Below, one piece after another: positions 33,873 through 47,790 of a stretch of DNA of 64,000 nucleotides. The stretch is from assembly GCA_041483895.1 (NCBI GenBank), contig JBGPGO010000003.1, forward strand, positions 192,001 through 256,000, written 5' to 3'. The DNA comes from Fimbriimonadia bacterium. GTDB taxonomy: Bacteria > Armatimonadota > Fimbriimonadia > Fimbriimonadales > JABRVX01. Position 1 is the stretch's first letter, and the number at the start of each line of letters is the position of its first letter. The position numbers were made by a program, and so were the translations under genes. The notes below the pieces were generated by a model. The model made no database searches. It was given only the letters and a program-made list of their open reading frames with translations, and had not been told where the DNA came from.

Positions 33873-35282
33873 ATGATTTTTCTATTTGCGCTCGCAGCCC
33901 TGGCCCAGGGCGTTTCCAAAGACATCGACCGTGTCGAGATCACGGTCTACAACCAGAATTTTGGGGTGGTGAAGGAGACCCGGACGGTGGATATCAAGCC
34001 GGGAATCAGCACCCTGGCCATCGAAAACGTCGCGTCATCCATCGACGCCACCACCGTGCATTTCAAATCTCTCGACGACCCCACAGGTGTTCGCATCCTC
34101 GAGCAAAACTACCAGTTCGATCTCCTCAGCCCGACCGCAATCTTGGAAAAGTCGGTAGGGAAGAAGGTCCGTTGGCATCGCACCCTGCCGGACGGCAAAA
34201 AGGAAACGGTCGAGGGCACCTTGCTCACACCGCCATCCCAGGGCATCGTGGTCCGCGCCAATGACGGCCGCTTGCTTCTCACCCCCAGCGGCGAGGTGGA
34301 AGTGCTCGAGCTGCCAGAGGGACTGATCCCGCGCCCGACCCTCGTCTGGCAATTGGATGCGGACAAAGGCGGACGCCAGAAGACCGAGGTCAGCTACATG
34401 ACCGACAACATCAACTGGCAGGCCGATTACGTGGTGACGGTCAACAAGGACGACACGATGCTGGACCTGGACGGCTGGGTGACGCTGAGCAACACGTCCG
34501 GCGCAAGCTACAAGGACGCGAAACTGAAGTTGGTTGCCGGGGATGTGCGTCGGACACCGCGATACAATGTCGGTATTGGGGGTGCGCCGGCCGGTGGCGG
34601 ACGAATGGGAGCCAAGTCCGCGCCACAGTTCGAAGAGAGCTCTCTGTTCGAGTACCACCTTTACACGCTGCAACGACCGACCACTATCAAGAACAAAGAG
34701 ATCAAGCAGGTCTCACTTCTCACGGCCAGTGGCGCGACGGCGCACAAGCTGCTCATCTACGAAGGCCAGCGATTCTATTACATGAACTACGGTCCGGAGG
34801 CAAGGCCGGGACAGGGCGAGGATACGGACCAAAACTCCAAGGTCGCGGTGTACATCGAGGTCAAGAACAGCGAAGCCAATCACTTGGGAATGCCACTTCC
34901 GAAGGGTACCGTCCGGGTCTACAAGCAGGACAACGAGGGGCAGCTACAGTTCGTGGGCGAAGACACGATCGACCATACTCCCAAGGACGAAACGGTCCGG
35001 CTGTGGCTGGGGAACGCATTTGACGTGGTGGCAACTCGAAAGCGGACGGATTTCAAGACCATCAGCCCTTTGATTTGGGAAGAGACGATTGAGATCAACG
35101 CCCGCAATCACAAGGACTCCCCGCAGGACCTCACGATTGTGGAGCATCCCTGGGGCGACTGGGAAATGCTGTCTAAGTCCCAAGAGTACGCCAAGCGCGA
35201 CGCCCACACCATCGACTTCCCGGTCACCATCCCGGCGAATGGCGAGGTGACGGTCACGTACCGCGTCCGAATGAAATGGTAA
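33873..35282 (+). CDS. DUF4139/DUF4140-family secreted protein
   Basis: ITVYNQNFGVVKE, EQNYQFDL, SYMTDNINWQADY, LFEYHLY, PLPKGTVRVY. Confidence 0.85.
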   Translation: MIFLFALAALAQGVSKDIDRVEITVYNQNFGVVKETRTVDIKPGISTLAIENVASSIDATTVHFKSLDDPTGVRILEQNYQFDLLSPTAILEKSVGKKVRWHRTLPDGKKETVEGTLLTPPSQGIVVRANDGRLLLTPSGEVEVLELPEGLIPRPTLVWQLDADKGGRQKTEVSYMTDNINWQADYVVTVNKDDTMLDLDGWVTLSNTSGASYKDAKLKLVAGDVRRTPRYNVGIGGAPAGGGRMGAKSAPQFEESSLFEYHLYTLQRPTTIKNKEIKQVSLLTASGATAHKLLIYEGQRFYYMNYGPEARPGQGEDTDQNSKVAVYIEVKNSEANHLGMPLPKGTVRVYKQDNEGQLQFVGEDTIDHTPKDETVRLWLGNAFDVVATRKRTDFKTISPLIWEETIEINARNHKDSPQDLTIVEHPWGDWEMLSKSQEYAKRDAHTIDFPVTIPANGEVTVTYRVRMKW

Positions 35283-35362: not shown

Positions 35363-35470
35363 ATGGGAGTTCGAGGCCCCGTAAAAAAGCGGGGTTTTTG
35401 TTAGGAACGTCTAAAGGAAATGCCCGCCTGCGCCGAAACTGAAACTGGATCGAGTTCACCTTCCTTCCTT

Positions 35471-35516
35471 GGGGGTGGTAGGCTTTGCTCTCCTTTCACT
35501 GCCGCCCCCTTTTTTA
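35471..35516 (+). terminator. Hairpin plus T-tract, a possible terminator of a small RNA
   Basis: gggggtggtag...ctgccgccccc followed by tttttt. Confidence 0.5.
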
Positions 35517-35560
35517 ATTCTTGGTTCATGGATGCTGAACAACCCTTTGGCTCCGCGCTC

Positions 35561-35890
35561 GATGTGTCGGGGTCCTCGCCTGCCGATATTTGTGGTTCGC
35601 CTGCATCCCCAGACCCCGACACGGACGAAGAGGCCTGCGCCTGAAAAAAGGGCAGGGCTTTCCAAAATTGCCTGGATGTGTCGGGGTCCTCGCCTGCCGA
35701 TAACTGTGGTTCGCCTGCATCCCCAGACCCCGACACGGACGAAGAGGCTGACGCCTGAAAAAAGGGCAGGGCTTTCCAAAATTGCCTGGATGCGTCGGGG
35801 TCCTCGCCTGCGGATATCTGTGGTTCGCCTGCATCCCCAGACCCCGACACGGACGAAGAGGCCGGCGCCTGAAAAAAGGGGAGGGCTTTC
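35561..35890. repeat. About 2.9 tandem copies of a 114-bp unit with an internal hairpin
   Basis: Units start at 35561, 35675 and 35789; each carries gtgtcggggtc...gaccccgacac arms (the copy 3 left arm is gcgtcggggtc). Confidence 0.92.
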
Positions 35891-35895
35891 AATCG

Positions 35896-36531
35896 TTACC
35901 CCTGTTCCTCAGCCGGCCTCCTTCGGCGACGCAAATGGCTGTACACGAACCAGACAATCCCGACCAGAATCAGCACAATGATGAGAGTTTCGAACCGGTT
36001 CATATACCGTTGGACGGTCTCCCACTGTTCGCTCGCCCGGTATCCCACGTAGGCAAGGCCGTAGCACCAGGGCAGGGAACCGACAAGTGAAAGCGCCAGA
36101 AACGGCCAAAAGCTGACTCCGTGGATTCCGGCGGGCAAGGAGATGAACGTGCGGATGACCGGCACCATGCGCCCCAGGAACACCGCCCCCTGCCCATATT
36201 TGTGGAACCAGCGATCGGCGACTTCGAAGTCGTGTGCCCGGAACAGCACGTATTTCCCGTACTTTTCAAGGAAGGGCCGCCCCCCCTTTCGCCCCGCCCA
36301 ATAGGACAGCGCGGAACCGATCATACAGCCGAACGCGCCCAAAATCGCAGCCGCATGAAAACATATGCCGCCCTTCTGCGCGACGATTCCGGCGGCCACC
36401 ATCACCACTTCGCTGGGGATTGGGATACAGGCGCAGCCGATCGCCATGAGGGCGATGATGCCGGGGTAGCCGGTGGTCGCAACCACCTGTTCGCACCAGT
36501 CCTTCAAGGTTGTGAGCAGCGATTCGACCAA
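35896..36531 (-). CDS. dedA: DedA family membrane protein
   Basis: CIPIPSEVV, YWAGRKGGR, GRMVPVIRTFISLPAG. Confidence 0.92.
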   Translation of the reverse strand: MVESLLTTLKDWCEQVVATTGYPGIIALMAIGCACIPIPSEVVMVAAGIVAQKGGICFHAAAILGAFGCMIGSALSYWAGRKGGRPFLEKYGKYVLFRAHDFEVADRWFHKYGQGAVFLGRMVPVIRTFISLPAGIHGVSFWPFLALSLVGSLPWCYGLAYVGYRASEQWETVQRYMNRFETLIIVLILVGIVWFVYSHLRRRRRPAEEQG

Positions 36532-36587
36532 AGGAGACCCCTTTGCTGATTATTGCCGGACGGTCAAGGATACCTAGGCGCCATCCG

Positions 36588-36685
36588 GAAGCCCTCCCCT
36601 TTTTTCAGGCGGCAGCCTCTTCATCCGTGTCGGGGTCTAGGGATGCAGGCAAACCACAGATATCGGCAGGCGAGGACCCCGACAC
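36588..36685. repeat. Inverted fourth copy of the 114-bp unit (about 98 bp)
   Basis: Its reverse complement matches the 35561-35890 units with few mismatches. Confidence 0.9.
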
Positions 36686-39823: not shown

Positions 39824-39872
39824 CAAGGGATCCTATTCGCCTCTCACAGGCGATTCCCTTGAGGACAGATGC

Positions 39873-39899
39873 AAACAGGAGGCGGCCGGCCGCCTCCTG
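39873..39899 (-). terminator. Perfect 24-bp palindrome followed by TTT on the minus strand
   Basis: caggaggcggccggccgcctcctg at 39876-39899. Confidence 0.55.
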
Positions 39900-40053
39900 A
39901 TCGGATCGATGGCAATGCTCCTTGGCTACTTCGGCATGTCGCCGGCTCCATTGCAACGGTGGTTGTCCGGCGTGAAATGGGTCATGCCACTTTCGGGTCC
40001 CGACCCCAATCAGTCGGCTTGCGGGCCGGTAGCAATTCACCGACCTTTGCGGG

Positions 40054-40062
40054 TGCTATAAT
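40054..40062 (+). promoter_or_regulatory. Extended -10 promoter of carB
   Basis: TGcTATAAT about 38 nt upstream of the GTG start. Confidence 0.55.
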
Positions 40063-40099
40063 ACACGGGTTCCCCCCAACTCTCCCGGAAAGGCTGCCT

Positions 40100-43000
40100 G
40101 TGCCACGCGACGCGAGCATCAAGAAGGTCCTGGTCATCGGTTCAGGTCCGATTGTGATCGGGCAGGCGGCGGAATTTGATTATGCCGGGACACAGGCGTG
40201 CCGGTCGCTTCGCGAGGAAGGCGTTTCCGTCGTCCTCGTCAACTCCAATCCCGCAACAATCATGACTGACGCGGCTACAGCGGATCGGGTGTACATCGAG
40301 CCGCTCACGATCCCCTTTCTCGAGCGCATTATCGCCATCGAAAAACCGGATTCGCTGTTGCCGTCGCTAGGGGGGCAGACCGGACTCAATCTCGCCGCCC
40401 AGCTCGCGGACGAGGGGATACTAGAAAGATATGGCGTCCGTCTTCTGGGTACGCCGCTCTCGGCGATTCACAAAGCGGAGGACCGGGAGATGTTCCGCGA
40501 TGCCATGCGGCATATCAATGAGCCCGTTCCGGAAAGCTGGGTCGTCGTGTCGCGGGAACAGCTAGCGGATGTCGCGGAGATTGCTCCGTACCCGTGCATC
40601 ATCCGCCCCGCCTACACTCTCGGCGGCACGGGCGGCGGCGTGGCCCATGACAAAGAAGAGCTGATCGAGATCGGCCGACTCGGTCTCTCCCTCTCCATGC
40701 GCAATCAGATATTGGTCGAACGCAGCCTGCTCGGTTGGAAAGAGCTCGAGTATGAGGTGATGCGCGATGGCGCGAACAACGCGATCACCATCTGCAACAT
40801 GGAGAACCTGGATCCGATGGGAGTGCATACGGGTGACAGCATCGTGGTCGCTCCCAGCCAGACGCTGAGCGATATCGAATATCAGTTGCTGCGGTCCGCA
40901 TCGTTGCGAATCATCCGCGAGCTTGGCGTAGAGGGCGGGTGCAACGTACAATTTGCCGTCAGCCCGCACGGCTTCGATTACTATGTGATCGAGGTCAATC
41001 CGCGCGTGTCACGGTCTTCCGCGCTGGCATCTAAGGCGACGGGATATCCCATCGCGCGCGTATCGGCAAAGGTTGCGATCGGTCTTCGGCTGGACGAAAT
41101 CGACAACGCCGTGACGAAGAAGACCAAGGCATTTTTCGAACCGGCATTGGACTATTGCGTGGTGAAAATCCCACGATGGCCGTTCGACAAATTCTTAGAG
41201 GGCGACCGGCGGTTGGGCACGCAGATGAAGGCGACCGGAGAAGTGATGGCGATCGACCGGACCTTTGAGGCGGCCCTGATGAAGGCGCTCCGCTCGCTGG
41301 AATTGGACGCCCACGATCTCCGACATCCCCGCTTTTCCGGTATGCCCGATGACGAGCTTTGGACCGCGGCCCGCACCGCCACCGACGATCGCCTGTGGGC
41401 TGTCATCGAGGTTCTCCGACGTTCTGGAGGATTAGTGTCTGGAGGGCTCCGTTCCATCGGAGCCGATTTGCGACATGGCTCCGATGGAACGGAGCCCTCC
41501 AGAACGGAGTCTTCCAATAAAGCCGGCTCCGATGGAACGGAGCCCTCCAGAACGGAGCCCTCGATCCGGGCGCTCGCGCGCGAAACGGGCATCGACTTGT
41601 GGTTTCTGGAAAAGCTCCACCGGCTCGTGCAAATCGAAAAAGAGATTTCGGACACGCCGATGGATGGCAACAGCTTGCGCCGATGGAAGCAGTTAGGTTT
41701 CTCCGATCGCACGATCGCCGCAATGCTGGGAATGACGGAAAGGGAAGTGCGGGAACGGAGGAAGATCGAAGGCATCCTTCCCGCCTACAAAATGGTCGAT
41801 ACGTGCGCCGGGGAGTTTGAGGCAGTCACGCCCTATTATTACTCCACCTATCATGGCGAATCCGACGACACTCCTCCGCGCGACGGTTCGGCTATCCTCG
41901 TCCTCGGCTCCGGTCCCATCCGCATCGGCCAAGGCGTGGAGTTCGATTACTGCAGCGTCCACGCCGTCCAAGCGCTGCATGACGCCGGTCGGCGATCGGT
42001 CATCATCAACAGCAATCCGGAAACCGTCAGCACCGACTTCGACATCTCCGACGCCCTCTACTTCGATCCGATAACGCTCGAAGACGTGCTGAACCTGTGC
42101 AATCACGAGCAACCGGAAGGGGTCATTGTGCAGTTCGGCGGGCAGACTGCCGTCAACCTCGCCCGGCCGCTGCAAGAAGCGGGGATCAAGCTGATGGGGA
42201 CCTCGGCGGATGCGATGGAGGCGACCGAAGACCGCGACAAATTCGAGCAGCTTCTCACGCGATTGGACCTGCCGAAGCCGCCGGGGCAAGGAGTGACGGC
42301 GTTGGTGGACGCGCGAAAAGTGGCCGCGCGGATCGGCTATCCGGTGCTGGTCCGGCCGTCGTTTGTTTTAGGGGGCCGGGCGATGCGAGTGGTTCACGCC
42401 GAGGATGAGCTGACCGCCTATTGGGCGGGCGCGGCGGCGGCATCGGCGGATGCGCCGGTACTTGTAGATAAGTTTATCGTTGGCGGTGAGGCGGAAGTCG
42501 ATCTGGTATGCGACGGATCGAACGTGGCACTCAGCGGCATCATGGAGCATATCGAAGCGGCCGGCGTGCATTCCGGCGACAGCATGGCGGTTACTCCTCC
42601 CATCACGCTGACGGCAACCGTATGCGAGCAGATCGAGGAGAGCGCGCGCCGAATCGCTTTGGAGGCGGGGATAGTCGGCATGCTCAATATCCAATACGTG
42701 ATTCGCGATGGCGTCCCGTACGTTTTGGAAGTGAATCCGCGCGCCAGCCGAACCATCCCGTACATTAGCAAGGTGATTGGCGTTCCGCTCGTTCAGCTTG
42801 CGGTGCGGGCCATGTTGGGAGAGCCGATAGCCGAGGTCGTTCGCGCCACCGGCAAGGTCTACGCGGTCAAAGCGCCGGTGTTCAGCTTCCAAAAGTTGAC
42901 CAGGGTCGAACCGATGCTGGGACCCGAGATGAAATCCACGGGCGAGATTATGGGGGTGGACGACGACTATCCCTCGGCGTTGCTCAAGGCCTTCATCGCC

Positions 43001-43423
43001 GCCGGGATGCCGCCGCAGCCGACGGGTTTGGCGCTTCTCACCGTGTCGGATCGCGATAAGGAGCGGATCGTGCGAATCGGGAAAAAGCTCATCGATCGAG
43101 GGTACGAAATCGCGGCGACGCTGGGGACGCATGAAGCCCTCCAATCGGCCGGTGTCGCGTCGGCGCCGGTGCAGAAGATGCAGCAGGGGTCGCCGAGCAT
43201 TCTGGACCTCGTTCGTGGCGGAACGGTTTCGCTACTCATCAATACCATCTCGCACACTGTCGAATCGGAGGGGCATTCGGTCAAGATTCGACGCGCTTGC
43301 GTGGAACAGGGCGTCCCATGCGTTACATCCCTGGACACCGCCGAAGCGCTCATCGAGGCGATAGACGCCGCCAAGAACCCGTCCGCAGTAGATTGCCGGG
43401 CCTTGACGGACTATGTGCACTAG
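40100..43423 (+). CDS. carB: Carbamoyl-phosphate synthase large subunit
   Basis: IKKVLVIGSGPIVIGQAAEFDYAGTQAC, EVNPRVSRSSALASKATG, second ATP-grasp half, MGS domain. Confidence 0.97.
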   Translation: MPRDASIKKVLVIGSGPIVIGQAAEFDYAGTQACRSLREEGVSVVLVNSNPATIMTDAATADRVYIEPLTIPFLERIIAIEKPDSLLPSLGGQTGLNLAAQLADEGILERYGVRLLGTPLSAIHKAEDREMFRDAMRHINEPVPESWVVVSREQLADVAEIAPYPCIIRPAYTLGGTGGGVAHDKEELIEIGRLGLSLSMRNQILVERSLLGWKELEYEVMRDGANNAITICNMENLDPMGVHTGDSIVVAPSQTLSDIEYQLLRSASLRIIRELGVEGGCNVQFAVSPHGFDYYVIEVNPRVSRSSALASKATGYPIARVSAKVAIGLRLDEIDNAVTKKTKAFFEPALDYCVVKIPRWPFDKFLEGDRRLGTQMKATGEVMAIDRTFEAALMKALRSLELDAHDLRHPRFSGMPDDELWTAARTATDDRLWAVIEVLRRSGGLVSGGLRSIGADLRHGSDGTEPSRTESSNKAGSDGTEPSRTEPSIRALARETGIDLWFLEKLHRLVQIEKEISDTPMDGNSLRRWKQLGFSDRTIAAMLGMTEREVRERRKIEGILPAYKMVDTCAGEFEAVTPYYYSTYHGESDDTPPRDGSAILVLGSGPIRIGQGVEFDYCSVHAVQALHDAGRRSVIINSNPETVSTDFDISDALYFDPITLEDVLNLCNHEQPEGVIVQFGGQTAVNLARPLQEAGIKLMGTSADAMEATEDRDKFEQLLTRLDLPKPPGQGVTALVDARKVAARIGYPVLVRPSFVLGGRAMRVVHAEDELTAYWAGAAAASADAPVLVDKFIVGGEAEVDLVCDGSNVALSGIMEHIEAAGVHSGDSMAVTPPITLTATVCEQIEESARRIALEAGIVGMLNIQYVIRDGVPYVLEVNPRASRTIPYISKVIGVPLVQLAVRAMLGEPIAEVVRATGKVYAVKAPVFSFQKLTRVEPMLGPEMKSTGEIMGVDDDYPSALLKAFIAAGMPPQPTGLALLTVSDRDKERIVRIGKKLIDRGYEIAATLGTHEALQSAGVASAPVQKMQQGSPSILDLVRGGTVSLLINTISHTVESEGHSVKIRRACVEQGVPCVTSLDTAEALIEAIDAAKNPSAVDCRALTDYVH
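41438..41557. repeat. Palindromic REP-like element in frame within carB
   Basis: 27-bp perfect inverted repeat at 41438-41464 and 41477-41503; 33-bp direct repeat at 41477-41509 and 41525-41557. Confidence 0.9.
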
Positions 43424-43471: not shown

Positions 43472-43972
43472 ATGCTAAAGCCTCAAGATGTATTGATCGT
43501 ACTAAAGCTCCAGGCCATCGGCAATAAAGAAACGCTCCAGAAACTTAGTTCGATGCTTGGTCTGAGCGCATCTCAAGTACACGCATCCATGCAGCGGCTC
43601 AAAGTCGGAGGATTGGTAAATGATGTCTCCGCGGTGCAACCGAGGGCCGTATATGAGATGCTCCTAGCACTAAGATATTTCATGCCCGCGGAAAAGAACG
43701 GACTGGTCCGGGGTATTCCTACGGCATACGCCGCGCCGCCGCTTTCGAACAAGATCGTTGCGGGCGACGAGCCTCCACCGGTATGGTCGGATGCGGAGGG
43801 CACTGTGAAGGGCATGTCCATTTCGCCGATCCACAAAGTGGTGCCTGTGGCAATAAAGCAGGATCCAGTGCTTTATGAATATCTCGCACTCGTGGATGCG
43901 CTCCGCATTGGACGCGCGAGAGAGGTTCAATTGGCACGTGACGAATTGAAGGCGAGATTTGGCATTTCGTGA
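43472..43972 (+). CDS. wHTH protein, putative antitoxin/regulator
   Basis: N-terminal HTH (LSSMLGLSASQVHASMQRL); RGIPTAYAAPPL; LALVDALRIGRARE. Confidence 0.7.
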   Translation: MLKPQDVLIVLKLQAIGNKETLQKLSSMLGLSASQVHASMQRLKVGGLVNDVSAVQPRAVYEMLLALRYFMPAEKNGLVRGIPTAYAAPPLSNKIVAGDEPPPVWSDAEGTVKGMSISPIHKVVPVAIKQDPVLYEYLALVDALRIGRAREVQLARDELKARFGIS

Positions 43973-44670
43973 TGCGATCTTCTCCGCAATTAGACATGAT
44001 CGTGAAGGCATCGGGTGCACTGGGCCCTTTGAACGACAACGTTGTCTTTGTTGGAGGCTCGGTCCTCTGCTTGCTGCTGACCGATGAGTCCGCCGCAACG
44101 CCGAGGCCGACAGAAGACGTTGACGTCATTATCGAGATTGCATCGCGGAAGCAGTACTATGAACTCGAAGACAAGCTACGAAATCTCGGTTTTCAACAAG
44201 ACCCATTTGAGTCGAACATATGCCGCTGGCGTATTGAAGATTTGGCGGTGGACATTATGCCGATCAAAGAGGAGATATTGGGGTTTACCAACGATTGGTA
44301 TCTTTCGGCGATGACTCATGGCACCAGGATCGAACTTCCGAATCGTATGGTAATTGCAAGGATCGATGCGCCGCACTTTGTCGCAACGAAGCTGTCGGCC
44401 TTTCGTGATCGTGGCGGCGGCGACATGTTCTCGAGCGTCGATATGGAAGACGTCGTTACAATTCTTGATGGCCGACCGGAATTGATCGAGGAAGTTAGTC
44501 TGTCCCCGGCCGACCTGTTGTCGTATCTAGCTTCTGAGGCTCGCCGGCTCCTCGAAGAACAACATTTGGAATCCGCGATAGAAGGCCATCTTCGAACTGT
44601 CCTCAATTCGGCCGCGCGCGTTCCGATCGTATTGGATCGAATTCGCCTGTTGACCGAGATAAAGGGCTAA
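43969..44670 (+). CDS. Nucleotidyltransferase-fold protein, putative AbiEii-like toxin
   Basis: VFVGG, RPTEDVDV (DxD), ATKLSAF, DMEDV; GTGA coupling to the HTH gene. Confidence 0.7.
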   Translation: MMRSSPQLDMIVKASGALGPLNDNVVFVGGSVLCLLLTDESAATPRPTEDVDVIIEIASRKQYYELEDKLRNLGFQQDPFESNICRWRIEDLAVDIMPIKEEILGFTNDWYLSAMTHGTRIELPNRMVIARIDAPHFVATKLSAFRDRGGGDMFSSVDMEDVVTILDGRPELIEEVSLSPADLLSYLASEARRLLEEQHLESAIEGHLRTVLNSAARVPIVLDRIRLLTEIKG

Positions 44671-44703: not shown

Positions 44704-45774
44704 ATGCTAGGTATCTGGACCACTCTCTTCGGGTTTTTTGTGGGAGCCGCCGCCGGGAGCTTCGTCAACGTCCTTGTCTGGCGGCTCCCGCGCAACCAGT
44801 CCATCAATAACCCCAAGTGGAGCTATTGCCCGAACTGCAAGGCCCGCCTCACGCTTTTGGACCTATTCCCCCTGCTCAGCTTCCTGTTCAGCCGTGCCCG
44901 GTGCCGCCACTGCGGAAAGCCGATCGCGTGGCGATATTTTTGGGTAGAGATTATGTGCGCCTCCCTTTGGGCCGGTCTGTGGTATCAGAATATGGTGATC
45001 GGTTGGCAGCCTGCCGTCTTCCTGGCCTACGCGCTTTTTGCCACCGCTCTCGTCGCGATCGTATTTATCGATATCGAGTTTTTCCTCATCCCCGACGAGC
45101 TGAACACCTGGCTTCTCCTGTGCGGCATCGGGCTTGGAGTCTATTTCCTGGTGATCGGAGACCTGCGCGGCTGGCAGCAGGTGGGTTCGTTGCATCTGCC
45201 GGCATTCTTGGTCGGGATGGTGGCGGGTACGGCAATTCTGTGGCTAATCGCGTTTTTGGGCAGAATTCTGTTTCGCAAAGATGCCATGGGGCATGGGGAC
45301 ATCAAGATGGCGCGGGGCATGGGGGCGCTGCTGCCGTTCCCGTTTCTGGTGGCCTCTATCGGATTGGCAATCGCGTTTGGGGCGGTGATTGGGGTCATTT
45401 TGCTGATACTGTTGGGGAACAAGAGTGAGCCGGAAGTTGCGCAGGAAGCGCCGGAAGAGGAAAATCCCAAGCCAGAGCCGGTTGGGGTGCTTCTCGTCGC
45501 CCTCCCGATCTATCTCCTCTGTCTGGATGCCATTACGACCCTCATCCCGCCGCTCATGAAGCCGCTGGATGGCGTTACTACGCGATTGATAAAGTCCGTC
45601 GCACCTGGTTGGGAGCCGCCGTCCGAAGACCCGGCAGAAGATGACTGGAAGCCGACCGCGTCGACAATCCCATTTGGCCCCTGGCTGGCGGCGGGGGCAT
45701 TGTGCGCCATGCTGCTTGCGGGGCCCATCGAAACCGGCGTACGAGCCTATATCCGATGGGCGACAGGGGGTTGA
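44704..45774 (+). CDS. pilD: Prepilin peptidase / N-methyltransferase (A24)
   Basis: GSFVNVLVWRLP, CPNC...CRHC, FIDIE, MGHGDIKM, IPFGPWL. Confidence 0.92.
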   Translation: MLGIWTTLFGFFVGAAAGSFVNVLVWRLPRNQSINNPKWSYCPNCKARLTLLDLFPLLSFLFSRARCRHCGKPIAWRYFWVEIMCASLWAGLWYQNMVIGWQPAVFLAYALFATALVAIVFIDIEFFLIPDELNTWLLLCGIGLGVYFLVIGDLRGWQQVGSLHLPAFLVGMVAGTAILWLIAFLGRILFRKDAMGHGDIKMARGMGALLPFPFLVASIGLAIAFGAVIGVILLILLGNKSEPEVAQEAPEEENPKPEPVGVLLVALPIYLLCLDAITTLIPPLMKPLDGVTTRLIKSVAPGWEPPSEDPAEDDWKPTASTIPFGPWLAAGALCAMLLAGPIETGVRAYIRWATGG

Positions 45775-45860
45775 CGTCGTCCGATGTGTTTGGGTCTTGG
45801 GTATCGGTGCTAGGGCGGATATCGGAACGCGTGAACCCCGACACTTCTGGGGTAAGGCTT

Positions 45861-45894
45861 AAACAATAAAGACGGCCCGAAGGCCGTCTGTTTT
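45861..45894. terminator. Bidirectional Rho-independent terminator
   Basis: aaacaataa-agacggcc-cgaa-ggccgtct-gtttt. Confidence 0.8.
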
Positions 45895-45950
45895 ATAAGT
45901 GGGGCCGCATCCGTGCGGCCTCCTTCGTTCCCACCATCCTTGGTGTCCAC
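45861..45950 (-). ncRNA. Candidate GGA-rich CsrA/RsmA-sponge-like small RNA (about 90 nt)
   Basis: Own promoter and terminator; five GGA motifs, two of them in hairpin loops (CACCA-AGGA-UGGUG and GGCCGCA-CGGA-UGCGGCC). Confidence 0.6.
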
Positions 45951-45955
45951 TGCTT

Positions 45956-45985
45956 ATCTTAGCAAACCACTTTAACGTTTGTCAA
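45956..45985 (-). promoter_or_regulatory. Sigma70-type promoter for the candidate sRNA
   Basis: TTGACA (45985-45980), an 18-nt spacer ending in TGc, then TAAGAT (45961-45956). Confidence 0.65.
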
Positions 45986-46003
45986 CCCCTATCCCGGTAT
46001 TTT

Positions 46004-46639
46004 TTACAAGTTTTCGTCCTTGGGGGCGGTTGGGCGGGGCAGGGGGAATAGGTCTTCCGGCCTCGTCATGCTGTACCAGGGGCCTCCCAAACGTCCGATC
46101 AGATCAATTTTCGTCGTGTCCGGAACCCCATCCGTCAGGATGGATTCGTCGTAATGGCACATCACAATCTCGCCGATCACATAGTTCGCGGCGAGCGGAC
46201 CTTCCCCGTGCCGGACGACCTGGAACAGCTTGCATTCGAAATTCGCCGGACTTTCGGCCACCAGCCAGGGCCGGATTTTCGTCGCCGGTTTCGGCGTGAA
46301 CCCGGCTTTTTCCCACTCGCTCACCCCATACGGATACTCATAGCTGGCCTCGTTGACCTTCGAGGCCATCGACCGGGTGACGACCGAAATCACATACTCC
46401 CCCGTCGCTTCGACGTTCACCAGCGTGTGTTTGGGAGCGGAATCGCGGGTGTTGGTTGGGGAAAAGGTCAAGCTCGGCGGATTGGAGCCGCCCATGATGA
46501 AAAAGCTGAACGGAGCGAGGTTGGGAACTCCTTCCGGCGATAGGGTGGATACGAAGGCGATCGGGCGAGGCGCGATGCACGGAAGGATCTTGGCGTATCG
46601 TTCGCGCGGCGGCAGCTCGGCGGGGTCGAACGAAAGCAT
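46004..46639 (-). CDS. Flavin reductase family protein (DIM6/NTAB-like)
   Basis: IAPRPIAFVST, NLAPFSFF, KHTLVNV, VAESPANFEC, IGRLGG. Confidence 0.88.
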   Translation of the reverse strand: MLSFDPAELPPRERYAKILPCIAPRPIAFVSTLSPEGVPNLAPFSFFIMGGSNPPSLTFSPTNTRDSAPKHTLVNVEATGEYVISVVTRSMASKVNEASYEYPYGVSEWEKAGFTPKPATKIRPWLVAESPANFECKLFQVVRHGEGPLAANYVIGEIVMCHYDESILTDGVPDTTKIDLIGRLGGPWYSMTRPEDLFPLPRPTAPKDENL

Positions 46640-47790
46640 CAGCGCTCCTGGATGTCGAAGCCCCGCTTGCGCAGCTCTTCCATGTATCGTGTGCCCGTTA
46701 CCGCCAACTCATAGGGAATCGCTCCTGGCTTCACCCGTCCCTGCGCAATCTCGATGGCGTAGATCGAGGTGCTGAAGCCGGTCATTCGCTCCATGGCCGT
46801 GAAGCCTGTGGCGTCGTCGTGATAGTCCACAATATCAACAATTCGCTCCACGCTCTGCCCGCCCTTTACCCCTTTTGCCCAGCCGCGCACGGCGACGAGG
46901 TCTTTCGAATCGTTGACGAGGCGTGGACCCATCAGGGTGTGAAACACCTCTCGCGGTACGGCGGAACCGGTCCGTGTTTCGATTTCCGCCTGATCCCAGT
47001 AACCGAAGTCCTTGAAAATCTTCATGAGATGGCAGTGGCCGGGATATCGGAAGGTCTTGTACTCATAATTGCGAACACGGCCCTTGAAGCTGGTCGGGGC
47101 GGTGCTGGTGCCGCCGCTGGTGACAAAAGCCTCTAGCTTGCCAAGTTTTGGATGATCGACCTCTTCCAATTCTGTGAGAGTCGGGATGTGGATGATTTCG
47201 CCGTTTCGCAATGCGGTCGCTTCGCCGCTGTACTCGGTCACGAGCCCTTCTACATTGAACACCAGTTTATAGTTGAAGGGCGGTTTGGGATCCTGCGGCA
47301 GGCCGCCGCAATAGAGCTTTACGTCCGTGGCTTCGTCCATCGATTCCATCAGATAGGTCGCGATGTTGTTCACCATGCCTGGGGCCAGTCCGGTGTCGGG
47401 GACCACCGAAACGCCGGCGGCCTCCGCCCCGGCCGCGGCCGCGAGGGTCGCAAGGGTGATGTCCGTGTTGCCACCCAAGTCCACCATGCTGGTCTTGGCT
47501 GCCACGGCAACGGGTGCGATGCGCGGGTGCATCCAGTACGGAACGCAGCTCACGACGATGTCCATCCCGCTGAGGAACGAGCCCAGCTCCTCGGCGTCCA
47601 GGGCATTGACATGGTCCGGTTGGCAGATCTCCGATCCGACCAGCTTGTTCACCCGCTCCGCCGCACGCTGAGCCTGCGCCTTGTCCGAATCCCCCATCAC
47701 AATGCGGTGCGGATTGCCGAACCGAGCGAGATCATAAGCGACCGACGTGCCCTGCATCCCCGAACCCAAAATTGAATAAACCGCGCCCAT
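46639..47790 (-). CDS. Saccharopine dehydrogenase-like / lysine 6-dehydrogenase
   Basis: ILGSGMQG, VDLGGN, DTGLAPG, CGGLP, KTFRYPGH, TAMERMTG. Confidence 0.85.
   Translation of the reverse strand: MGAVYSILGSGMQGTSVAYDLARFGNPHRIVMGDSDKAQAQRAAERVNKLVGSEICQPDHVNALDAEELGSFLSGMDIVVSCVPYWMHPRIAPVAVAAKTSMVDLGGNTDITLATLAAAAGAEAAGVSVVPDTGLAPGMVNNIATYLMESMDEATDVKLYCGGLPQDPKPPFNYKLVFNVEGLVTEYSGEATALRNGEIIHIPTLTELEEVDHPKLGKLEAFVTSGGTSTAPTSFKGRVRNYEYKTFRYPGHCHLMKIFKDFGYWDQAEIETRTGSAVPREVFHTLMGPRLVNDSKDLVAVRGWAKGVKGGQSVERIVDIVDYHDDATGFTAMERMTGFSTSIYAIEIAQGRVKPGAIPYELAVTGTRYMEELRKRGFDIQER

Follow-up and report, generated by a model that had tools for sequence, protein, structure and literature searches.

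Organization of the locus

The window is the whole 64,000-nt stretch of DNA analysed here, from a Fimbriimonadia bacterium. The element of interest lies on its minus strand, between a flavin-reductase-like gene upstream and a prepilin-peptidase gene that converges on it. The features of the region are listed below in window coordinates.

44704..45774, plus strand: prepilin peptidase gene (pilD-like), convergent with the element; Pfam A24_N_bact and Peptidase_A24
45861..45889, minus strand: intrinsic-terminator-like hairpin (45889-45870) with U tail, called on both strands
45899..45950, minus strand: putative sRNA core, 52 nt, closed by the outer stem P1
45950-45947 (GUGG) with 45902-45899 (CCAC), minus strand: stem P1, which closes the core
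45903..45920, minus strand: hairpin P3, GGCCGC-ACGGAU-GCGGCC, with the third ANGGAN loop
45921..45931, minus strand: linker with the second ANGGA site (AAGGA), which is the loop of a 2-4 bp mini-hairpin in other families
45932..45945, minus strand: hairpin P2, CACC-AAGGAU-GGUG, with the first ANGGAN loop
45956..45964, minus strand: extended -10 box TG-N-TAAGAT (TAAGAT at 45961-45956), with an 18-nt spacer containing the TG
45980..45985, minus strand: -35 box TTGACA of a sigma70-type promoter
46004..46639, minus strand: flavin-reductase-like gene (Pfam Flavin_Reduct), ending 19 nt before the -35 box

The initial annotation read this interval as a candidate sponge sRNA of the CsrB/RsmZ kind, transcribed from a near-consensus promoter. 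The TTGACA box, the 18-nt spacer with its TG and the TAAGAT box are all present, and the ~90-nt unit that it quoted occurs exactly in the sequence. The two boxes form the sole promoter-like site in 45000-47000 (shuffle mean 0.6), and transcription is predicted to start near G45950. In two genomes of the same family the -35 TTGACA is unchanged while the spacer differs. The annotated terminator is also there as a hairpin with a U tail; since both strands give the call, it probably serves the convergent prepilin-peptidase gene as well. A separate terminator is, however, rare in the RNA family described below (5 of 113 members), most members ending in the P3/P1 stem and a pyrimidine-rich tail.

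Five GGA motifs, which had been placed within 45 nt, start at 45948, 45939, 45931, 45923 and 45912 and span 39 nt. Three of the five are ANGGA, two in hairpin loops and one in the linker, and the GGA spacings at the locus are 16, 11 and 27 nt. Both annotated hairpin loops exist, but as ANGGAN hexaloops closed by C-G rather than as tetraloops closed by A-U, and the fold as first drawn lacked the pairing of the 5' GUGG with the 3' CCAC that closes the core. The folding z-score of the unit was -3.7 to -3.9 relative to shuffles. Among 185 in the genome, this is the only ANGGAU hairpin pair (at least 5 bp, within 80 nt); a looser hexaloop rule gave five such pairs, the other four of which belong to a REP-like repeat. 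No second full-length copy of the element was found in the 3.95-Mb genome.

Other classes of element were also considered. A 14-codon frame opens at the AUG in loop 1, but neither the AUG nor the frame is kept across the RNA family; we therefore rejected a small peptide, and the earlier statement that there is no credible ORF holds. ARAGORN called no tRNA or tmRNA gene at the element's position on contig C3, and there was no Rfam match at gathering level in the window.

Distribution of the RNA family

The host had been taken as probably non-gammaproteobacterial, and its lineage is indeed Armatimonadota. BLAST located the element in both other genomes of its own family (E ~1e-17), with promoter boxes and core kept. 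A first covariance model built from three sequences was searched against 150 Fimbriimonadales genomes and matched 64 of them at E ≤0.5. All 30 returned loci share the same plan, as do 32 of 39 weaker matches that were fetched; the remaining 7 do not. A consensus pattern run against 185,579 species genomes gave 92 matching stretches, and 78 of the 80 titles listed were Armatimonadota taxa, mostly Fimbriimonadales. The two other listed titles, Terrimicrobiaceae (a 1.7-kb contig) and Methanoregulaceae, we suspect to be misbinned or mistitled records. After 7 non-members and 42 duplicates were dropped, the alignment held 109 unique sequences, and four added by hand brought it to 113. Genome G036, which is flagged as unpublished, contributes a single row to this alignment, a single csrA leader and one genome to every order tally given below.

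A second covariance model, with a strong match defined as E below 1e-7, returned one strong match in 92 of the 150 Fimbriimonadales genomes. By family these were f1 3/3, f2 70/97, f3 0/1, f4 0/29 and f5 19/20. No strong match was obtained in 136 genomes of other Armatimonadota orders (best 24 bits, E 3.3e-5), 63 of which carry csrA, and none of the 20 best weak loci of those orders looked by eye like a member. In the 29 genomes of family f4, a triple-GGA pattern hit gene leaders, coding DNA and repeats, and no standalone RNA. A metagenome pattern scan gave one true member (L189) among the 80 matches listed, the rest looking coding or repeat-like, and a loose two-motif pattern in 151 genomes returned mostly coding matches and REP-like tandem repeats. 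We concluded that the element is almost certainly genuine and represents an sRNA family of Fimbriimonadales not catalogued before.

One genome (G147) has a second, longer copy of the RNA at L468:208-317 on contig C50. It has its own -10 box, and its P3 carries ~50 inserted nt with an ACGGAC loop at their end.

Neighbouring genes and repeats

The initial annotation placed the RNA beside pilD and possibly in control of an EPS operon. A link to pilD is not supported: neighbours differ even within the same family, where two genomes have a divergent purF-like gene and a convergent patatin gene, and pilD is absent from the homologous loci L006 and L007. Nor is the flavin-reductase-like gene a constant neighbour. 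A crude ORF call over the 113 loci placed the next gene convergently in 49 and on the same strand in 55. Because neighbours vary this widely and the downstream gene is so often convergent, neither pilD nor any other single gene can be linked to the RNA. Control of EPS found no better footing, as the cluster (Wza-, Wzc- and sugar-transferase-like genes at ~1.6-17 kb of the window) is ~29 kb away and just single SD-like ANGGA motifs occur at some starts.

These data also bear on whether the element might instead act in cis, as a leader or riboswitch, or derive from a REP-type repeat that was domesticated without any function in trans. The 55 loci with a same-strand gene, the scarcity of separate terminators, and the REP-like repeats with GGA loops in this genome and elsewhere in the order all speak for such a reading. 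Against it, the next gene is convergent in the host genome and throughout its family, the downstream genes are mutually unrelated, each genome has one strong copy, and no riboswitch in Rfam matched. The variation in neighbours together with the 49 convergent loci argues that the RNA is not a leader, and the single full-length copy in the genome, with one strong match per genome, led us to reject a REP-type repeat. Overall we regard this explanation as very improbable. The element, by its sequence, resembles Csr/Rsm sponge sRNAs in having its own promoter, in being non-coding and in being independent of its neighbours.

The REP-like repeat of this genome is a 23-nt palindrome with the loop AYGGAR, itself an ANGGAN hexaloop, in 46 copies genome-wide. 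Three copies lie in frame at window positions 41442-41547, inside a carbamoyl-phosphate-synthase-like ORF (39869-43423). Such copies could titrate CsrA if transcribed, or loops of this kind could arise for other reasons. As ANGGAN hairpins also occur in this 46-copy repeat, the motif alone is no proof of CsrA binding. Tandem REP-like repeats with CANGGAUG loops were seen at G011:C39:27282-27394, G029:C245:3921-4021 and G054:C83:3276-3349 (L111, L124 and L072), family f4, which lacks the sRNA, being among the groups concerned.

Two further features of the window were recorded. Several ~100-nt direct repeats, with spurious repetitive ORFs, occupy 35401-35981 and 36543-36620, after a gene ending at 35282. 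On the plus strand at 43472-44670, between the carbamoyl-phosphate synthase gene and pilD, two adjacent ORFs of 166 and 233 aa without a Pfam match are possibly a toxin-antitoxin-like pair; we take a D-x-D stretch of the 233-aa ORF to be nucleotidyltransferase-like.

Structure and conservation of the RNA

The consensus is a closed junction made of the outer stem P1, hairpin P2 (CACC/GGUG), a mini-hairpin P2b and hairpin P3, followed by a 3' tail that is 74% C+U and is otherwise not conserved. At the 16 named pairs, 90.9% of cells were paired, compared with 81.2% in shuffles and 43-54% with slid partners, and 185 double changes were observed against 76. Among 113 members, P2b is closed by U-A in 62 and by A-U in 47, and the P3 stem is 99% paired with double changes at three of its five pairs. 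P1 is paired in 73.8% at fixed register, and matched 5' and 3' flanks pair at -10.85 kcal/mol versus -6.4 for mismatched flanks. RNAalifold alone recovered P2 and P3 and no more, and ViennaRNA missed the full junction for some members (L141, L138, L472). The family of the host genome has, in place of P2b, an open linker with AAGGA or, in relatives, AGGGA; divergent copies have a 4-bp P2b. The homologue covariation that the initial annotation had put forward as a check is thus seen in the stems, and the ANGGAN loops are largely kept.

P2 hardly varies and is therefore uninformative on covariation; its near-invariance suggests a further constraint. One alternative to a sponge is a CsrA-bound guide or scaffold that pairs with mRNAs instead of simply titrating CsrA. 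The near-invariance of P2 and of the GGUGGNAAC segment fits this idea, as does the small number of sites for a sponge, and PasE of pathogenic E. coli offers a precedent (bioRxiv 10.64898/2026.08.12.744399). Against it, almost nothing besides the GGA loops is single-stranded, P2 is rewritten in divergent copies (CAAC/GUUG in L472 and CCC/GGG in L461-L463), and the 3' tail is conserved only in being pyrimidine-rich. We consider a guide role quite unlikely.

The loops were compared with the form of high-affinity RsmE binding, an ANGGAN hexaloop with variable N positions (PMC7652899). Loop 1 was left free in the search pattern. Of 109 unique members, 85 have ANGGA at its start (N = C39, A28, G11, U7) and 24 do not; 91 have GGA somewhere in this loop and 18 lack it, and ANGGC and ANGGU are tolerated. 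In the ANGGAN of loop 3, N was C40, G34, A22 and U13 and the sixth base U48, A27, C25 and G9 (109 members each). These free N positions were not a product of selection by the search pattern or by the three seed sequences. For the middle and third GGA, conservation is in part a product of the method, since the pattern required both and the models favoured them. Cores contain two ANGGA in 17, three in 61 and four in 35 of 113 members. The stems of the divergent copies in G072, G119 and G037 are rewritten, with three GGA loops kept; in other copies GGA is lost and the fold kept, at the middle site in L473 and L475 and at most sites in L464 and L465. Judged by sequence, the loops of the family match the RsmE-type ANGGAN hexaloop.

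In 100 of 113 members a -10-like hexamer precedes the first hairpin by 10-23 nt, compared with 3-11 of ~112 in controls at three offsets under a slightly stricter rule. TTG is found at -35 spacing in 36 of the 100 members that have the -10-like box.

CsrA, FliW and candidate target leaders

A search for csrA and fliW was among the checks first proposed, and the genome encodes one of each, side by side, behind a flagellin-family gene that reads as flgL; two flagellins are also encoded. The 72-aa CsrA aligns to solved CsrA proteins (E ~3e-17). Both Leu4 and Arg44 are present, which we take to be residues of the RNA-binding core of CsrA. The protein also retains Asn55, the residue linked to FliW binding (PMC13407953).

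We examined the 30 nt upstream of csrA at L001 and L037-L065. A CC-ANGGAG-GG hairpin with free N (C9, G9, U6, A5) encloses the csrA ribosome-binding site at 29 of these 30 Fimbriimonadales loci. From this arrangement we infer autoregulation and canonical CsrA specificity, and the hairpin is predicted to be an order-wide autoregulation site. One flagellin leader of the host genome has two ANGGA sites; among 30 flagellin leaders, 12 have at least two, nine have one and nine have none. A genome-wide screen gave 50 crude candidates for CsrA-target leaders, a number that comes without a usable control, so we name no regulon. The best score for a UvrY/GacA ortholog (NF007018) was 119 against a cut-off of 280 bits, in a genome that is 95% complete.

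Leaders with related hairpins were also seen elsewhere in the order. In G007 and G028, the leader of a sigma-54-like ORF (L012:1450-1560, minus strand, and L013) contains an ACGGAU-loop hairpin nearly identical to P3, behind a sigma-28-like promoter; the promoter consensus and the RpoN box were used for these assignments. Both genomes have lost the sRNA. The P3-like hairpin is absent from the 200 nt of leader of the sigma-54-like homologue in the host genome. In family f4, conserved GC-ANGGAG-GC hairpins with variable N occur in leaders (L527, L531-L535, L541, L542, L544, L528 and L530) of genes that by eye encode a ~465-aa protein, a response-regulator-like protein and an ATP-synthase c-subunit-like protein; these are candidate non-flagellar CsrA targets. 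Other Armatimonadota families, f32 (G199, G211, G245, G253, G261, G269) and f21 (G216, G238, G280), have two to five CsrA-family matches per genome, and no match to the RNA was found in f32 and f21 genomes.

Co-occurrence of the RNA with csrA and fliW

Of the 150 Fimbriimonadales genomes, 146 have csrA and 129 have fliW, and csrA is present in 91 of the 92 RNA-bearing genomes. The RNA occurs in 16 of 17 csrA-positive genomes that lack fliW (15 of 16 without G036), versus 75 of 129 fliW-positive genomes. The 17 fliW-less genomes span four genera, and three of them are only 73-86% complete. Within genus g3, the RNA was found in 9 of 10 genomes without fliW and in 5 of 17 with it. Since kin are not independent, we place no weight on the nominal P value of this association. 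Genomes with csrA and no strong match comprise all 29 of f4 and, counted by fliW, 54 of the 129 fliW-positive ones.

Losses were examined by synteny. The usual upstream gene was sought in 20 genomes without a strong match and was found in 15, all of them fliW-positive. At none of these 15 syntenic loci was the RNA detected, even with filters off, and in eight of them the usual downstream gene directly follows (by eye). Among 41 genomes checked, the three fliW-less ones also have no flagellin, and their CsrA has no Asn55; CsrA would have to have other targets there. Two genomes depart from the pattern: G129 has the RNA with csrA and fliW undetected (160 contigs, 97% complete), and G074 has csrA with neither antagonist found.

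Several of these observations could suit a structured sRNA that has the ribosome or a protein other than CsrA as its partner, the GGA loops being incidental. The middle loop resembles a Shine-Dalgarno sequence, degenerate copies lose GGA and keep the junction, loop 1 accepts ANGGC and ANGGU, and csrA went undetected in RNA-bearing G129. Yet three ANGGAN sites with free N survive the rewriting of stems, retention of the RNA tracks the loss of fliW, and no conserved start codon follows the SD-like loop. The lack of an ARAGORN tRNA call weighs the same way, as does, in regard to a Y RNA, a Ro60/TROVE search of the genome, which gave no match and on which we rejected that class. A partner other than CsrA is in our view unlikely, if the least so of the three alternatives. 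The claim of a CsrA-sponge-like sRNA outside Gammaproteobacteria is strongly supported by the presence of csrA, the order-wide RNA family and the conserved ANGGAN loops.

Proposed mechanism

We think it probable that the RNA acts as a minimal CsrA sponge that coexists with FliW. Transcription, binding and titration are inferred here from established Csr biology. Transcription from the sigma70-type promoter would yield an RNA of ~55-90 nt, whose three ANGGA(N) sites may bind one or two CsrA dimers. CsrA held by the RNA would free CsrA-repressed mRNAs, and the RNA presumably competes with targets, the csrA and flagellin leaders for example. FliW would tie CsrA to the export of flagellin as a flagellin checkpoint, and the RNA would adjust CsrA activity whatever the state of flagellar assembly, becoming the sole antagonist after flagella and fliW are lost. 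Such independence would explain why csrA and the RNA are kept where fliW and flagellin have been lost. We also favour, with somewhat less assurance, the fuller proposal that Fimbriimonadales evolved their own minimal sponge RNA, one without shared ancestry with CsrB/RsmZ and without BarA-UvrY control, alongside FliW.

If this is true, two modes of CsrA control that reviews regard as mutually exclusive would be bridged by a living intermediate in these bacteria. With a ~55-nt RNA and three candidate sites, the question of coexistence is testable in vitro with CsrA, FliW and the RNA, and lineages that naturally lost one or the other antagonist chart how CsrA may shift from a flagellar checkpoint to a wider regulator. 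The RNA would further offer a natural CsrA sponge of very small size, useful for structure work and synthetic control.

Comparison with known systems

One review speaks of 'two mutually exclusive mechanisms' for sponges and FliW (PMC7366521), another states that their joint action in any species 'remains to be determined' (PMC7652899), and a 2026 paper places sponges principally in Gammaproteobacteria (PMC13407953). Searches of titles and abstract openings in the open literature, with Rfam as the sole motif list, turned up no account of this RNA or of Csr regulation in Armatimonadota, and at that level 'CsrA' and 'Armatimonad' appear together in a hot-spring survey only. Candidate RsmA-regulating sRNAs in Geobacter sulfurreducens and Oceanobacillus iheyensis were predicted computationally and are unvalidated (PMC5568370); those are single-genome predictions in other phyla, in contrast to the order-wide family found here.

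The FliW-CsrA-flagellin switch of Bacillus subtilis, Campylobacter jejuni and Geobacter sulfurreducens shares much with the host: fliW and csrA adjacent behind flgL, Asn55 in CsrA, and a flagellin leader with two ANGGA. According to PMC13407953 and PMC7366521, such FliW systems have no antagonist sRNAs, whereas 75 of the 129 fliW-positive genomes here carry a dedicated RNA alongside FliW. The pairing of an RNA decoy with FliW in the same bacteria, which reviews describe as unknown, is likely on the sequence data.

Competitive titration of CsrA through GGA hairpins is common to the Escherichia coli RNAs CsrB and CsrC and is predicted for the new RNA. CsrB has 22 GGA and depends on BarA-UvrY (PMC7652899); the new RNA, in contrast, has five GGA at the locus and a plain sigma70-type promoter, and its two or three sites are few beside the 22 of CsrB. 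The closest resemblance is to RsmZ/PrrB, RsmY and RsmX of Pseudomonas (RF00166, clan CL00106), which are likewise standalone and short, with several ANGGA in hairpin loops and a linker. Unlike RsmZ/PrrB, the new RNA has a core of just ~52-60 nt with 2-4 ANGGA in a closed three- or four-way junction, and its host belongs to a different phylum, has FliW and lacks a UvrY/GacA ortholog. The best of 4227 Rfam models was in fact PrrB/RsmZ, at 23.9 bits (E 0.001) against a gathering score of 44, and no Rfam model matched at the element in six further family members. The RNA has the covarying ANGGAN hairpins and the CsrA encoded in the same genome that mark Csr/Rsm sponges, and differs from gammaproteobacterial CsrB/RsmZ in its Rfam score, in the BarA-UvrY or GacS-GacA control of those RNAs and in their FliW-less hosts. 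It likely works like RsmZ/CsrB, yet stands outside those families.
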